36,129 nucleotides of DNA from a virus: the UHGV virus genome UHGV-0276305; one strand, 5' to 3'. The notes beneath the pieces are model-generated. The model was given only the letters and a program-made list of their open reading frames with translations. It was not told where the DNA came from and searched no databases. Positions within the stretch are counted from its first letter, which is position 1. Every line of letters begins with the position of its first letter. The position numbers and the translations under genes were made by a program. This document shows positions 23,869 to 28,069 of this stretch, piece after piece.

Positions 23869-24216
23869 CTAATACTTTGCATGTCTTACCCTATGGCAAT
23901 TTGAACATAGCAAAACACATTTGTCAAGTTCATCTTTTAGTTCTTGAGAGAACTTCAGACTTTTTCTATGACCAATGTTAAAATCTTTCTCTGAAGGATT
24001 CAAATGATGGAAGTCATACACTGCTGGATGATACCTTTTACCACAATCATGACAAACCCCACCTTTGTACTCAATAGCTGAAAGTTTAAGTGCTCTTTGT
24101 CTTTCTATGGTTTGCTCATTAACACACTTTTTACAGTATGAATGAGTTCTCTTACCATCTTTCATGTAGAAATCATTTTCATCCTTGCTAAGTTTGCACC
24201 TAATACAAGTTTTCAT
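23869..24216 (-). CDS. HNH homing-endonuclease-like protein
   Basis: about 116 aa from MKTCIRCK (ORF-track N-terminal extension overlaps a tRNA-like gene); CxxC..CxxC zinc-finger-like N-terminus and HNH core (YDFHHLNP ... N ... LLCSNCHRVRH). Confidence 0.8.
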   Translation of the reverse strand: MKTCIRCKLSKDENDFYMKDGKRTHSYCKKCVNEQTIERQRALKLSAIEYKGGVCHDCGKRYHPAVYDFHHLNPSEKDFNIGHRKSLKFSQELKDELDKCVLLCSNCHRVRHAKY

Positions 24217-24230
24217 GATTTCTCCAAAAT

Positions 24231-24312
24231 TGGTCGAGGCGGCAGGACTCGAACCCGCATACTCCACTTACTCGGTTAACGGCGGTTTAGAAGACCGCTG
24301 AGATACGCCCCG
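24231..24312 (-). tRNA. atypical tRNA-like gene, anticodon UCU (Arg-like)
   Basis: 82 nt; acceptor CGGGGCG/CGCCTCG, canonical T-arm GCGGG-TTCGAGT-CCTGC, CCA encoded, perfect anticodon arm GCGGT-CTTCTAA-ACCGC; no recognisable D-arm and an extra 23-nt segment before the T-arm. Confidence 0.4.
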
Positions 24313-24883: not shown

Positions 24884-24887
24884 ATTA

Positions 24888-25031
24888 AATTATCTTTGTA
24901 GATAAGCTACCCAGACTTGCTTAAGGTCTGTAGCGATGTGCCTTTTTGGGTTTAAATCTAGAATTTACCCTTTCACCCTTTGTGGTCGCATACTCACAGG
25001 TAAGCTTAATAACTTATCTACAAAGATAATT
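24888..25031. repeat. 19-bp perfect inverted repeat flanking a ~106-bp core (long-stem structured element)
   Basis: 24888-24906 (aattatctttgtagataag) is the exact reverse complement of 25013-25031; core contains further short hairpins. Confidence 0.6.
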
Positions 25032-25032
25032 A

Positions 25033-25163
25033 CCAGACCGTTGTTTATCATCTTAAGTGCTACCATTACACCAACTCGACATCTGCCGAGTGAAGGAATC
25101 GAACCTTCGCCTTTTCTTTACCGAGAAATAGATTGTTTAAGTTTTGCTGTAAACGGTCTTCTG
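25033..25163. repeat. repeated spacer element copy A (ccagacc ... gtttgctg-N-ggtcttctg), contains a tRNA 3' fragment
   Basis: shares 5' ccagacc and 3' ttgctgNaaNggtcttctg with three other copies. Confidence 0.5.
25084..25108 (-). pseudogene. tRNA 3' fragment (T-arm plus acceptor 3' strand), no matching 5' half found
   Basis: GAAGG-TTCGATT-CCTTC T-arm followed by ACTCGGC; no complementary GCCGAGT within 100 nt upstream. Confidence 0.35.
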
Positions 25164-25176
25164 TAAATTTGTTGAG

Positions 25177-25250
25177 CCAGACCAAGTTTTAAATTTTTCA
25201 AAATTAAATTGGCTTGAAATTTTAAGTAACTTGCTGTATTTGGTCTTCTG
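25177..25250. repeat. repeated spacer element copy D
   Basis: ccagacc at 25177-25183 ... cttgctgtatttggtcttctg ending 25250. Confidence 0.5.
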
Positions 25251-25260
25251 CTCCTTTAAA

Positions 25261-25281
25261 GGATACTCGTAAGAACCCTTT
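25261..25281 (-). promoter_or_regulatory. second copy of the conserved ~20-nt motif (plus-strand GGATACTCGTAAGAACCCTTT)
   Basis: matches 21705-21724 at 18 of 20 positions; lies just upstream (in the transcription direction) of spacer copy D. Confidence 0.3.
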
Positions 25282-25311
25282 AAGGGAGGGGCTAAATAGC
25301 CCTCTCAAAAT

Positions 25312-25389
25312 TGGCGGTTACGAAGGGATTTGAACCCTCATCATCTCCCGTGACAGGGGAGTATTTTAACCAAATTAAACTACATAACC
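25312..25389 (-). tRNA. tRNA-Asp (GUC)
   Basis: acceptor GGTTATG/CGTAACC, D-stem GTTT/AAAT, anticodon arm CTCCC-CTGTCAC-GGGAG, T-arm GAGGG-TTCAAAT-CCCTT, CCA encoded. Confidence 0.8.
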
Positions 25390-25394
25390 TTTAT

Positions 25395-25482
25395 TGGTGT
25401 GCCGTGTAGGAGTCGAACCTACCGAGTCTCAATGACAAGGGATTTACAGTCCCCACCGCTACCATCTACGGGATAACGACAC
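25395..25482 (-). tRNA. tRNA-Tyr (GUA), long variable arm
   Basis: 88 nt; acceptor GTGTCGT/ACGGCAC, anticodon arm GGGGA-CTGTAAA-TCCCT, about 15-nt variable arm, T-arm GTAGG-TTCGACT-CCTAC, CCA encoded. Confidence 0.75.
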
Positions 25483-25551
25483 ATTTAATTTCTATTCAGG
25501 CTAAGGACTTGCACCTTACAAATCGGTGAGCAATTGCTTCTCTCCTAAATT

Positions 25552-25628
25552 TGGCGGTTAGTCAGGGATTCGAACCCTGTGCCATTCGCTTAACAGGCGA
25601 CCGCACATACCTTATGTGCTTCCTAACC
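25552..25628 (-). tRNA. tRNA-Asn (GUU)
   Basis: acceptor GGTTAGG/ACTAACC (one mismatch), D-stem GCAC/GTGC, anticodon loop CTGTTAA, T-arm CAGGG-TTCGAAT-CCCTG, CCA encoded. Confidence 0.75.
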
Positions 25629-25639
25629 TTAATACATTG

Positions 25640-25699
25640 CCAGACCGTGTTTTTTCTTTTATCCGCAAAAAGTAGTTTGTTGCTGAATACGGTCTTCTG
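25640..25699. repeat. repeated spacer element copy B
   Basis: ccagacc at 25640-25646 ... gtttgttgctgaatacggtcttctg ending 25699; directly abuts the 3' end of the next tRNA. Confidence 0.5.
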
Positions 25700-25705
25700 C
25701 AAAAT

Positions 25706-25782
25706 TGGAGGCGGGTGCAGGAGTCGAACCTACCGATACCATGCTAATGAGACATGTGAGACGCCCTTTCTCTATACCCGCA
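25706..25782 (-). tRNA. tRNA with anticodon CAU (Met, initiator or Ile2; unresolved)
   Basis: anticodon arm CATGT-CTCATTA-GCATG, T-arm GTAGG-TTCGACT-CCTGC, CCA encoded; position 1:72 unpaired (T-C) and 3 nt between acceptor and D-stem. Confidence 0.6.
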
Positions 25783-25793
25783 ATTCTTAATGA

Positions 25794-25866
25794 CCAGACC
25801 AAATCTCTTCTTTGTCCGATTTCGTGTCAGATGAATAAGATTAAGTTTGCTGCAATTGGTCTTCTG
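25794..25866. repeat. repeated spacer element copy C
   Basis: ccagacc at 25794-25800 ... gtttgctgcaattggtcttctg ending 25866. Confidence 0.5.
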
Positions 25867-25873
25867 TCAAAAC

Positions 25874-25951
25874 TGGCGTTCCAGAAGGGATTTGAACCCT
25901 CAAATATCCACTTTGAAAGAGTGGTGACTTTACCGTTTTGTCTACTGGAAC
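25874..25951 (-). tRNA. tRNA-Glu (UUC)
   Basis: acceptor GTTCCAG/CTGGAAC, anticodon arm CCACT-CTTTCAA-AGTGG, T-arm GAGGG-TTCAAAT-CCCTT, CCA encoded. Confidence 0.8.
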
Positions 25952-26200: not shown

Positions 26201-27616
26201 TTACCAGATATAACGGTCAATCATTACTGCTTTGAGCATTACACTAATTGGGTCAAACTTCTCACCACCAAGCAGAGCTTTTAAAGTGGCTGGAGAGAAA
26301 CCAGATACCATTGCTACACCGTTATCCTTAACAGATACTTCGCAAGTGCCATTACGGTTTGCTAAGTACCAGAATACCAGTTGTGGCATCTCATATCCAG
26401 CTTTTTTGTACTTACTCTGAATTGCTTCAAAGTTTGTACGACCGTTAGCTCCATCAACCTGATTGAACTCCATATCAGAGAAGATGATAAGCTTACTTGG
26501 CATATCTTTCTGAGTCAAGTTATTTCTCTTACCTGTCTCAAGAATGCGGTCAAAAGCTGCTTGTAAGTTAGTTGAACCGTATTCAACATGACGCATTACC
26601 TGACGATGACGGTTTCGTAAATCACCACTCAGTTCAATGAAGTGAGGGTTTGTTGAATAAACCATCAACTCATTCTTAAAGCAACCTGTATTACGTTCTG
26701 CTACATACAATGCAAGTGAAACACCAATATCAAGAGCAGTAATTGAACCAAAATTCACCCAAGACATTGAACTTGAAACATCAGACATACATAGAATGTT
26801 TTCACCCTCTGCCATCCAGTTTGGTAGTGCTTTCCACTGCTCATTAGCAACATCTGCATTACCATACTTAACAGATTTAATCACATCGTATGGGTAAACA
26901 GCACCAGCATTAATCTTAGTCTCACCCTTTGATAAGGACTCGATGTAAGCTTTGTAGCGTTCTCCATCTTTACGGTTAAACAGTTTTTGGTAACGTGCAG
27001 CAGCAAGTGAAGGAATCTTACTGTAGTCAATCTTACCAAACTCATTAGCAGAGATTTTTTGCTCAACTGTATCAGATAGTGCAGACAACAGTGTGCGGTA
27101 CTCTTTCTCACTCAAGTTGGCAAACTTACAGAAACGTTTTACAAACTGTTTGTGACGTGGTTTTACTCGTGGTAACCACTTAGCTGCTAAACCTGCTGTT
27201 GCAGGGTCTAGTAAAGCTGCTTCTAAATGTTTGAAGGCATCTGTCTCGAAACGAGTACCTACAAAGATTTTGAAGTCATCAAAGCGACCAAGCTCTGCAA
27301 TCTTATCCATAATGCGAAGAACCTGCGTAGGCTCTAAAACTTTATCTTCAATCGCTTGAAGTAAAACAGTTCGGAAAGCTTTACGCTCACCCATACCTTC
27401 TCGTACATCTCGCATATGCAGTAAAATACGAACTGCAACATCAGCATCCTCATGCAAAGCTTTGTAGAACAAGTCTGGTAAGATTTCTACATTGCTACGG
27501 CTAGAACCAGCAGCTTTGTAAAAGTCTACAAGAGCAGACATTGATGAAGTATGGTTTACAGCACCATTTTCAGTTCGACCTGCATGAAGGTGCGCATGTT
27601 TAAATAATTCGCTCAT
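26201..27616 (-). CDS. vWA-domain protein with N-terminal helical domain (candidate Ro60/TROVE-like RNA-binding protein)
   Basis: 471-aa ORF; C-terminal half has MIDAS-type DxSxS (MSDVSSSMS) and downstream T and D positions (GSTNL, LIIFSDMEFN) typical of vWA folds; N-terminal about 250 aa predicted helical; Ro60 relationship is inference from architecture and genomic context. Confidence 0.6.
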   Translation of the reverse strand: MSELFKHAHLHAGRTENGAVNHTSSMSALVDFYKAAGSSRSNVEILPDLFYKALHEDADVAVRILLHMRDVREGMGERKAFRTVLLQAIEDKVLEPTQVLRIMDKIAELGRFDDFKIFVGTRFETDAFKHLEAALLDPATAGLAAKWLPRVKPRHKQFVKRFCKFANLSEKEYRTLLSALSDTVEQKISANEFGKIDYSKIPSLAAARYQKLFNRKDGERYKAYIESLSKGETKINAGAVYPYDVIKSVKYGNADVANEQWKALPNWMAEGENILCMSDVSSSMSWVNFGSITALDIGVSLALYVAERNTGCFKNELMVYSTNPHFIELSGDLRNRHRQVMRHVEYGSTNLQAAFDRILETGKRNNLTQKDMPSKLIIFSDMEFNQVDGANGRTNFEAIQSKYKKAGYEMPQLVFWYLANRNGTCEVSVKDNGVAMVSGFSPATLKALLGGEKFDPISVMLKAVMIDRYIW

Positions 27617-27697: not shown

Positions 27698-28069
27698 TTA
27701 TTTTTTAAGAGTCGCTACAGCAGAGAACGTTGGTTTGTTATCTGTCTGTGGTTGACCACCATTATCAGGAGTCTTCTTAGTGTCTGCTGCAAGTGCTTTC
27801 ATCTCACCTGCTGAGTGAGTAAAGATAGTTTTACCGACCTCAATCATACTCTTGATGGTTACATCATCTGTGTTTAACCCGAACTCTGCAAGCTTAGCAG
27901 CGTCCCTTGTAACAATCGCCTCAAACAACTTTGCAGCAAACTCAGCAGAATTATCAATGGTCAGTTGAGCTTTTACAAGTGAGCTTTTGTTGCGAGAGCC
28001 TTTTGGTCTTCCAGATGGGTTTCCAGATTGGCCTTTTTTAAACTGGCCTTTGTTTGTTCTGTTTTTCAT
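27698..28069 (-). CDS. hypothetical protein with Gly/Pro/Lys-rich N-terminal motif (KGQSGNPSGRPKGSRNK)
   Basis: 123-aa ORF; motif recalled from a family of small phage proteins of unknown function. Confidence 0.55.
   Translation of the reverse strand: MKNRTNKGQFKKGQSGNPSGRPKGSRNKSSLVKAQLTIDNSAEFAAKLFEAIVTRDAAKLAEFGLNTDDVTIKSMIEVGKTIFTHSAGEMKALAADTKKTPDNGGQPQTDNKPTFSAVATLKK

Follow-up and report, generated by a model that had tools for sequence, protein, structure and literature searches.

Small structured RNAs in a phage tRNA cluster probably form a Y-RNA-like family and are most likely the partners of an adjacent, divergent Ro60-like protein

The transfer RNA (tRNA) cluster of the viral genome UHGV-0276305, examined here over its full stretch of 36,129 nucleotides (nt; the window), contains four related elements, E1 to E4, in spacers between tRNA genes. 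There is strong support that these are real, conserved small structured RNAs, and they probably make up a new family resembling Y RNAs, whose most likely partner is the divergent Ro60-like protein encoded beside them. The repeat, its RNA structure with covariation, the tRNA mimic in E1, the conservation, the Ro60 fold of the neighboring protein and the linkage to the gene across distant phages are all directly established. The phage RNA family is new and widespread; it would behave as a Y RNA and looks like the Class I RNAs of Dictyostelium. The window represents the tRNA cluster of a Felixounavirus (Felix O1-like phage), with 299 matching phage records, the closest being Escherichia phage VpaE1_ev035 at 99% identity. 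ARAGORN identifies 25 tRNAs in it, 25 of 25 on the minus strand, and Rfam agrees; E1-E4 are therefore read as the reverse complement of the letters in which an original prediction, made from the bare sequence, had written them. The repeat that it described stands, and its lettering is turned to the other strand. Besides the strand, that prediction had missed the connection with the neighboring Ro60-like gene and the likeness to bacterial YrlA RNAs and to Class I RNAs.

The 5' module CAGAAGACC-N5-CAGCAA has exactly four matches, all free of mismatches, on the minus strand (25144-25163, 25231-25250, 25680-25699 and 25847-25866), where 0.10 copies are expected in the window and four were reached in 0 of 100 shuffles. 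The 3' module GGTCTGG closes all four copies, at 25033, 25177, 25640 and 25794. Four copies had been placed at these coordinates originally, and both modules are found there; the core of each was correctly delimited and the ends were not, as each element is 3 nt longer per end, where a lower helix of 4 base pairs (bp) is found. A relaxed scan of the window for further degenerate copies amounts to noise, with 52 matches on one strand versus 42 on the opposite one, and only the following four elements are claimed.

25030-25166, minus strand: E1, 137 nt; lower helix 25166-25163/25033-25030, upper helix 25159-25153/25041-25035
Core parts of E1, minus strand: AGA loop 25162-25160, N3 25152-25150, CAGCAA 25149-25144, unpaired G 25034
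25174-25253, minus strand: E2, 80 nt; two-helix core with CAGCAA, A/U-rich interior with a conserved small hairpin
25637-25702, minus strand: E3, 66 nt; two-helix core, between tRNA-Met and tRNA-Asn, folding z score -2.66
25791-25869, minus strand: E4, 79 nt; two-helix core, between tRNA-Glu and tRNA-Met

The core common to E1-E4 can be written 5'-NNNC-AGA-[AGACCNN]-N3-CAGCAA ... [NNGGUCU]-G-GNNN-3'. Its lower helix has 4 bp and its upper helix 7 bp; between them is an invariant, asymmetric internal loop in which AGA stands opposite G, and the CAGCAA motif is unpaired. The upper helix begins with an A-U and then a G-C pair, and N-U-N-CAGCAA lies unpaired directly past its 5' strand. The largest element, E1, folds with a minimum free energy (MFE) of -33.4 kcal/mol (z -2.35).

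The arms of this core change in sequence and keep their pairing. The lower helix, first revealed by an alignment of E1 orthologues in which the flanks pair too, is unlike in each paralogue (UUAC/GUAA, GAGC/GCUC, UUGC/GCAA and UGAC/GUCA), and the inner two pairs of AGACCNN/NNGGUCU vary in a compensatory manner among the four copies. To assess covariation, 33 distinct cores were taken from Felixounavirus, Mooglevirus and Suspvirus, picked by the conserved modules only and with the interiors replaced by a linker. Among these Ounavirinae sequences the upper helix is paired in 100% of cells, as are the four pairs of the lower helix, with two to four pair types per position; one position farther out, the bases do not pair in 30 of 33. 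Sliding the partners by one to three columns as a control lowers pairing to 23-49%, and the covariation score of 0.435, versus 0.166 in shuffles, was reached by 0 of 500 shuffles. The partial complementarity of ccagacc and ggtcttctg remarked on in the original prediction corresponds to the upper helix. Variants such as AGGCC/GGUCU and AGACCG/UGGUCU form a G.U wobble on the minus strand and an A-C mismatch on the plus strand; because such wobbles pair only there, selection acts on RNA of the minus strand. All four copies are kept in the three genera at fixed syntenic positions. Alignment and folding of the copies together with a search of related phages, which were among the checks named at the outset, thus yield two covarying helices conserved in three genera. 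The proposal of a family of small structured RNAs rather than random spacer is strongly supported by the covarying helices, by wobbles confined to the minus strand, by the three genera and by the presence of the core in about two-thirds of the distant phages that carry the gene.

The alternative of insertion elements, also raised originally, finds no support in these comparisons, since the terminal repeats covary instead of being conserved as DNA, the G.U pairs are strand-specific and the syntenic positions are fixed. More broadly, the copies might be elements acting at the DNA level, whether miniature inverted-repeat mobile elements, homing-endonuclease targets or recombination sites, and terminal inverted repeats are indeed present, with HNH endonuclease genes close by (23869-24267; in relatives too). 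Each G.U pair is an A-C mismatch on the other strand, the arms covary and are not conserved, and there are no target-site duplications; the strand bias in distant phages, where 79 cores lie on the gene strand and 4 on the opposite one, taken with the strand-specific wobbles, refutes this reading, to which we attach a negligible probability.

E1 has an elaborate interior, in which a small variable (V) hairpin, a T arm, a closed acceptor hairpin and a D arm follow one another in that order.

25092-25108, minus strand: T arm of E1 (GAAGG-UUCGAUU-CCUUC), invariant in six orthologues; a partial match to the Rfam tRNA model, positions 43-63
25074-25091, minus strand: closed acceptor hairpin of E1 (ACUCGGC-AGAU-GUCGAGU, 7 bp), covarying across genera
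25057-25071, minus strand: D arm of E1 (GUGU-AAUGGUA-GCAC), preceded by UG at the place of tRNA residues 8-9

E1 is a tRNA with its acceptor end closed and its anticodon end opened into a long stem, and a short helix, CUUA/UAAG, stands where the anticodon stem would be. The acceptor hairpin has three unrelated sequences across the genera, all of which pair (ACUCGGC/GUCGAGU, ACACG/CGUGU and ACCCUUC/GAAGGGU), with four of its pairs changed on both sides, and the T and D arms stay invariant as it varies. The T arm that had been described as an orphan within the first copy (GAAGGUUCGAUUCCUUC, 25092-25108) is real and is no orphan, for it belongs to a complete permuted tRNA-like body. With a loop closing its acceptor and the long stem in place of its anticodon end, E1 is a mimic and not the precursor of a functional tRNA. 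ARAGORN called no tRNA in the native elements; when they were un-permuted in silico it called 7 of 15, E1 included, and 0-20% of shuffled-tail controls.

The proposed partner is the product of a 1416-nt gene that lies directly upstream, in the sense of transcription, of the tRNA cluster in every relative.

26201-27616, minus strand: gene for the Ro60-like protein, 471 residues; helical-repeat N-terminal domain and von Willebrand factor A (vWA)-like C-terminal domain; Pfam DUF2828 and DUF7788; PHROG 850

PHROGs labels the family "RNA-binding protein," and the gene is the orthologue of bas63_0130 (Bas63 gp130). An AlphaFold model of the 471-residue protein, built on an alignment of 33 diverse homologues, has a predicted local distance difference test (pLDDT) score of 89 and a predicted template modeling (pTM) score of 0.88, with a helical-repeat N-terminal domain and an alpha/beta C-terminal domain. 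Its 11 best full-length Foldseek matches are all Ro60/TROVE structures, after which come only isolated vWA domains, and the model has the architecture typical of Ro60, a helical-repeat ring joined to a vWA domain. As judged from this model, the neighboring protein is a divergent Ro60-like protein, related by fold only. The PhageMaP preprint describes Bas63 gp130 as resembling Ro60 and as countering the Ppl defense system, and its authors guessed that Y RNAs were hidden in the tRNA cluster; a search of the literature found no paper identifying the E1-E4 RNAs. Plants and mimivirus-like sequences also have proteins with DUF2828. The Ro60-like gene has a conserved neighbor just upstream, at 27698-28069 on the minus strand, which encodes a 123-residue DUF5681 protein (PHROG 4114) and is present in all Ounavirinae relatives examined.

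How far the association of RNA and gene extends can be seen in 75 loci from uncultivated phages whose proteins are relatives at 39-47% identity. The exact Ounavirinae motif, AGAAGACC...GGTCTG, gave only five unconvincing matches in these loci, and the search was therefore generalized to a stem plus CAGCAA. Likewise, a scan of IMG/VR with 15 specified bases returned mostly single chance matches, two to four copies being found only in Felix O1-like contigs. The closest outgroup, locus L130, has four analogous elements in tRNA spacers, one of them with a T arm, built on wholly different helices (AGAGCAC/GUGCUCU, AGAGCAG/CUGCUCU, AGGACAC/GUGUCCU) and with N3-CAGCAA after each. The generalized pattern specifies 7 nt, N3, CAGCAA and the perfect complement of the 7 nt no more than 230 nt farther on, and a strict form adds the 3' G. 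Over the 75 loci, the pattern without the 3' G occurs 97 times on the gene strand, 20 times on the opposite strand and 7-18 times in shuffles; for the strict form the counts are 79 on the gene strand and 4 on the opposite one. Sixty-two strict matches lie within 1 kb of the gene, a density of 0.43 per kb versus 0.026 per kb farther away (a 16-fold enrichment), and 50 of the 75 loci have at least one. Among these cores are 53 distinct stem sequences, and features that the search did not impose are nonetheless conserved, the second stem position being G in 72/77, the fifth U in 63/77 and the middle of N3 U in 73/77. In 28 loci no tRNA lies within 6 kb, yet 18 of them have the element next to the gene; it is therefore with the gene, rather than with tRNAs, that the RNA is linked.

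The interiors of the distant members span the range from a bare A/U-rich loop to large structured domains. A T loop is present in 13 of 79, several of which are clean permuted tRNAs, some with a discriminator base and CCA in the closing loop. One interior block, CCUUUCUGGAGGGGAAAGCAAAAACUCGCC, recurs in five loci (L131 5276-5370, L132 3133-3232, L136 149-280, L140 1265-1373 and L153 5734-5828), and four others (L171, L176, L188 and L197) have in common a different large interior of about 150 nt; these shared blocks look like distinct cargo domains on one platform. In L170 (5734-5833) the stem and CAGCAA core surrounds an ordinary tRNA-Thr(UGU), which is not permuted and is recognized by ARAGORN as well as Rfam; the platform can thus flank a normal tRNA too, a hint of a link with the handling of tRNA precursors. 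Other RNA genes also occur near the Ro60-like gene in these loci. Transfer-messenger RNAs (tmRNAs) lie on the same strand a few kb from it in L150 (1317-1767), L152 (11822-12176), L158 (12119-12479), L160 (12694-13067) and L173 (12356-12709), and group I introns lie near it in L145 (11696-11922) and L195 (4253-4443). At its gathering thresholds, Rfam reports only tRNAs, plus a group I intron in one relative.

Permuted tRNA bodies raise the question of whether the elements are simply tRNA pseudogenes in decay, or neutral spacer left over when tRNAs were duplicated in tandem. E1 does look as if the 3' half of a tRNA had been joined to the 5' half of its neighbor, a degenerate T arm lies in another spacer of the window (25483-25551), and some relatives keep the discriminator base and CCA in the closing loop. 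The acceptor loop consists of a discriminator, CCA and 2-5 nt in E1 of phage Michonne (L121), in two elements of L198 (10484-10606 and 7795-7917) and in one of L179 (7528-7635); the acceptor loop of E1 in the window (AGAU) is without CCA. A loop of this composition is what a tandem tRNA duplication would leave, and cleavage of such mimics by RNase P could produce a nicked tRNA-like molecule with a genuine CCA end. An origin by tandem duplication is thus plausible, but selection acts on the elements as they now stand: the two strands of the closed acceptor complement each other and covary, which largely refutes decay, the most conserved part is the non-tRNA core, E2-E4 have no tRNA parts, and the family persists across phages whose proteins are 39-47% identical. 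Decay or neutral persistence is accordingly judged very improbable as an account of the elements in their present form.

The close association with the gene admits another explanation, in which the element regulates the Ro60-like gene in cis, from within its mRNA or operon (as an autoregulatory site, a 3'-end stabilizer or an attenuator), rather than acting in trans as an RNA. Many distant loci have a single short copy 10-60 nt past the stop codon or just upstream of the start, as such a site would, and in the window promoter-like sites and a terminator-like hairpin, known as consensus matches only, lie between the gene and the tRNA cluster. The copies of the window, in contrast, are 330-1170 nt downstream of the gene with tRNAs and the promoter-like sites in between, four to five copies with differing interiors are found per genome (the window, L130 and L198), and tRNA-mimic cargo makes little sense in an element of an untranslated region. 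Adjacency is, moreover, what bacterial and phage Y RNAs likewise show toward Ro60 genes. Regulation in cis therefore seems a distinctly unlikely role.

A further possibility is suggested by the tRNA genes themselves, three of which frame E3 and E4 and supply their processing context.

25874-25951, minus strand: tRNA-Glu; its 3' CCA lies 4 nt upstream of E4
25706-25782, minus strand: tRNA-Met; 8 nt downstream of E4 and 3 nt upstream of E3
25552-25628, minus strand: tRNA-Asn; 8 nt downstream of E3

Two copies had been said to end exactly at the CCA end of a tRNA, which is nearly right: E4 begins 4 nt past the CCA of tRNA-Glu (25874) and E3 3 nt past that of tRNA-Met (25706). Both stop 8 nt short of the next tRNA. 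Elements lying 3-8 nt from tRNA ends within a cluster could be no more than cis-acting hairpins that serve the processing, stability or insulation of a tRNA precursor, for example as RNase III or RNase E entry sites or as folding insulators, with no dedicated protein partner and no release as free RNAs. The conventional tRNA-Thr enclosed by the core in L170 fits such a role, as do the tRNA clusters beside the gene in many distant loci. That the 18 loci without tRNAs nearby keep the element directly beside the Ro60-like gene, however, is not what a processing hairpin predicts. Such a hairpin has no need of an invariant unpaired CAGCAA and an invariant internal loop, nor of an elaborate tRNA mimic on one paralogue in many phages, and only 4 of about 20 tRNA spacers in the window have the element. 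Although we consider it unlikely that the elements are hairpins of this kind, the idea retains some weight.

Under the preferred reading, that of partner RNAs for the Ro60-like protein, we infer expression, processing, physical binding and function as follows. E1-E4 would be four paralogous non-coding RNAs of 66-137 nt, transcribed together with the tRNA cluster from the minus strand. Since E3 and E4 start 3-4 nt past a CCA end and stop 8 nt short of the tRNA that follows, ordinary tRNA processing would release them, through RNase P cleavage at the 5' end of the following tRNA and 3' maturation of the preceding one, and exonucleolytic trimming back to the terminal helix would set the RNA ends. 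The platform formed by the two helices, the AGA/G loop and N-U-N-CAGCAA is a putative binding site for the ring protein orthologous to gp130, modeled on Ro60, which binds the terminal stem of a Y RNA together with an adjacent conserved motif. The variable interiors, a tRNA mimic in E1 and small A/U-rich hairpins in E2-E4, may then be effector or adaptor ends that recruit or decoy host factors, much as the Ro60 of phage phiLo is found with polynucleotide phosphorylase (PNPase) and YrlA with tRNA-modifying enzymes. By analogy with Ro60-Y RNA particles, the RNAs may gate the protein, tether it to host RNA enzymes or tRNA-recognizing factors, or both, with a proposed role in RNA surveillance or counter-defense during infection.

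Several observations weigh against this assignment. On the side of the protein, neither phmmer nor a profile hmmsearch against PDB sequences found Ro60, and Pfam TROVE has no match to the 471-residue protein, which matches DUF2828 and DUF7788 only. On the side of the RNA, the Rfam YrlA model (RF02553) gives no hit on E1 even at E <= 10. The Ro60-binding motif is GGUCCGA in animals and GNCGAA(N0-1)G in bacteria (PMC4201824); unlike YrlA, the phage elements have N-U-N-CAGCAA (with the AGA/G loop in Ounavirinae) rather than GNCGAA(N)G or CGAA, the nearest approach to the bacterial motif in the E elements being GCAGAAG, which departs from GNCGAAG at the C. The un-permutation test adds little because shuffled controls are called as well, 8 of 40 in the case of E1. 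Further complicating the case, the lower helix is not evident beyond Ounavirinae, 25 of the 75 distant loci have no strict match, and those loci were chosen through the protein, so that the frequency of the core is a frequency among gene-bearing loci only.

Other features of the cluster lie near the four elements. Directly 3' of E1, at 24885-25032 on the minus strand, is a long hairpin with a stem of about 24 bp around about 100 nt (MFE -48.3 kcal/mol, z -6.4; 0 of 200 shuffles fold as stably). It is kept in Mooglevirus and Suspvirus with compensatory changes in the stem and a diverged interior, has no CAGCAA core and no Rfam match, and shares 2 nt of its 5' arm with the lower helix of E1; it looks like a fifth structured RNA. 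An open reading frame (ORF) for 76 residues on the plus strand, 24936-25166, was rejected as a spurious call over RNA genes, and the "hypothetical proteins" that many deposited genomes place on the plus strand across E1, E2 and the long hairpin (e.g. bas63_0137/0138, at L205 2638-2912) are most likely spurious too, with RNA genes beneath them. The spacer between tRNA-Asn and tRNA-Tyr (25483-25551, minus strand) has a palindrome, AGCAAUUGCU, along with a hairpin like a degenerate T arm, AAGGUGCAAGUCCUU; it contains no member of the E family and may be a decayed tRNA. At 24234-24312 on the minus strand Rfam finds a tRNA (31.7 bits) that ARAGORN does not call, and the syntenic gene in relatives is annotated tRNA-Arg(TCT). 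The ORF for an HNH-endonuclease-like protein that overlaps it (23869-24267) was given a GTG start; its true start is probably an internal ATG (MKTCIRCKL...).

Ro60-Y RNA particles are a conserved and still poorly understood machine of RNA surveillance, and Ro60 is a major human autoantigen. A Ro60-like protein of divergent sequence is widespread in large phages, and the elements described here are specific candidates for its RNA partners; one of its orthologues, Bas63 gp130, is already tied genetically to escape from the Ppl defense. Rfam holds no such phage family, and the signature of a terminal helix, N-U-N-CAGCAA and a 3' G is searchable; it marks dozens of new structured RNAs, among them many permuted tRNA mimics. 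It also leads to a testable prediction, that the stem and CAGCAA motif are bound by the DUF2828 Ro60-like protein, and it connects bacterial YrlA tRNA mimics and phage tRNA clusters with the 20-year-old puzzle of the Dictyostelium Class I RNAs.

Permuted tRNA genes are known, for example in the red alga Cyanidioschyzon merolae, as are small RNAs flanked by tRNAs, such as the stable RNAs C and D of phage T4 and mascRNA. As in the former, the 3' half of the tRNA comes before the 5' half in E1, although here the acceptor is closed by a loop and a long stem, putatively bound by protein, replaces the anticodon end. No BHB splice motif was noticed in E1, though no search was aimed at one. As with the latter, release of the E elements by tRNA-processing enzymes is probable.

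Bacterial YrlA RNAs are closer in design. They place a V region, a T arm, a closed acceptor-like stem-loop and a D arm between paired 5' and 3' ends, they adjoin Ro60 genes in bacteria and phages, and tRNA-modifying enzymes recognize them, as does RNase P in one species (Chen et al. 2014, PMC4201824). The Ro60 of Thermus phage phiLo binds adjacent Y-like RNAs (Yrl1/Yrl2) and the PNPase of its host (PMC12135203). The E elements resemble YrlA (RF02553) in that their two ends pair into a terminal helix, here in the form of two covarying helices, beside which a conserved motif on the 5' side stays unpaired; one paralogue, E1, carries the tRNA mimic with its arms in the same order; and they adjoin a gene of the Ro60 fold, YrlA too occurring in phages. 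As among Y RNAs, several paralogues combine one platform with differing interiors. Two tRNA-like modules beside the gene match the YrlA model below its gathering score of 69 bits (L145, 39.2 bits, E 4e-5; L198, 28.7 bits, E 5e-4). Unlike YrlA, E1-E4 are embedded in a tRNA cluster, and the candidate partner is a protein of DUF2828 and DUF7788 rather than of Pfam TROVE.

The Class I RNAs of Dictyostelium are defined by a short stem that joins their ends and shows compensatory changes, a G that is invariant at the 5' end, an unstructured motif of 11 nt by the 5' strand in which U3, C6, C9, A10 and A11 are nearly invariant, a 3' CUGU, a variable interior, a length of about 60 nt (42-65) and a GC content of 32-41% (PMC7919456). 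Kjellin et al. in 2021 regarded them as unique to Dictyostelia, their function still unresolved (PMC7919456). In a permissive search the Dicty_Class_I_RNA model (RF01414) matches L163 (30.7 bits), L137 (28.9), L195 (24.4), L138 (17.9), three elements of L198 (24.3, 19.7 and 16.0), E3 (21.4, over the full model) and E2 (15.3); its gathering score of 41.5 bits is reached by no phage element, the best being 30.7. The boundaries of these matches coincide exactly with those of the elements in at least nine short phage members. Hits arise because the alignments show a common layout and motif, as when Class I GaUcuC-CUUACAGCAA ... GagAuC-UG is set against GACCGU-AUU-CAGCAA ... ACGGUC-UG of E3.

The phage elements are like Class I RNAs in having a short terminal stem with many compensatory changes and, directly past its 5' strand, a comparable unstructured motif (consensus CCUUACAGCAA in Class I, N-U-W-CAGCAA in phages). 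The exact Class I 11-mer is present in 8 of 77 phage elements and UACAGCAA in 43 of 77. Within CAGCAA, C6, C9, A10 and A11 are invariant in Ounavirinae, U3 being present in E1 and E4 and not in E2 or E3; in distant phages the position neighboring Class I U3 is U in 73 of 77. The likeness appears to extend to a conserved G near the stem base that pairs with C, and to a 3' C-U-G tail past the stem; G-C is the second stem pair in 74 of 79 phage elements, whose 3' strand ends in C-U, followed by G. Both groups have A/U-rich variable interiors and multiple paralogues per genome, and many phage members are 50-70 nt long. The median GC content of the phage elements is 37%; 35 of 77 are no longer than 70 nt, and 42 of 77 are longer, up to 225 nt. 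There are differences as well. The G of the phage stem is at its second position, after a paired A or U, the most conserved U of the motif is one position off, many members are far longer, with tRNA-like or other large domains, and the Dictyostelium promoter element is absent. The known partner of Class I RNAs is Rnp1A, a protein with an RNA recognition motif, and a Ro60-like partner is unreported. Because the scores fall below threshold and the register is one position off, the phage family is filed under neither YrlA nor Class I.

As far as sequence comparison goes, the phage core closely resembles Class I RNAs, and common descent is conjectural. It is a tentative idea, somewhat more doubtful than not, that the phage elements and Class I RNAs form one ancient family, the cognate Y-like RNAs of a DUF2828 branch of the Ro60 fold found in phages, giant viruses and eukaryotes. 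If it is true, Class I RNAs are not confined to Dictyostelia and their mechanism is that of a Ro60-type ribonucleoprotein, a DUF2828 protein would be the missing amoebal partner, and similar RNAs may occur in plants and mimiviruses.

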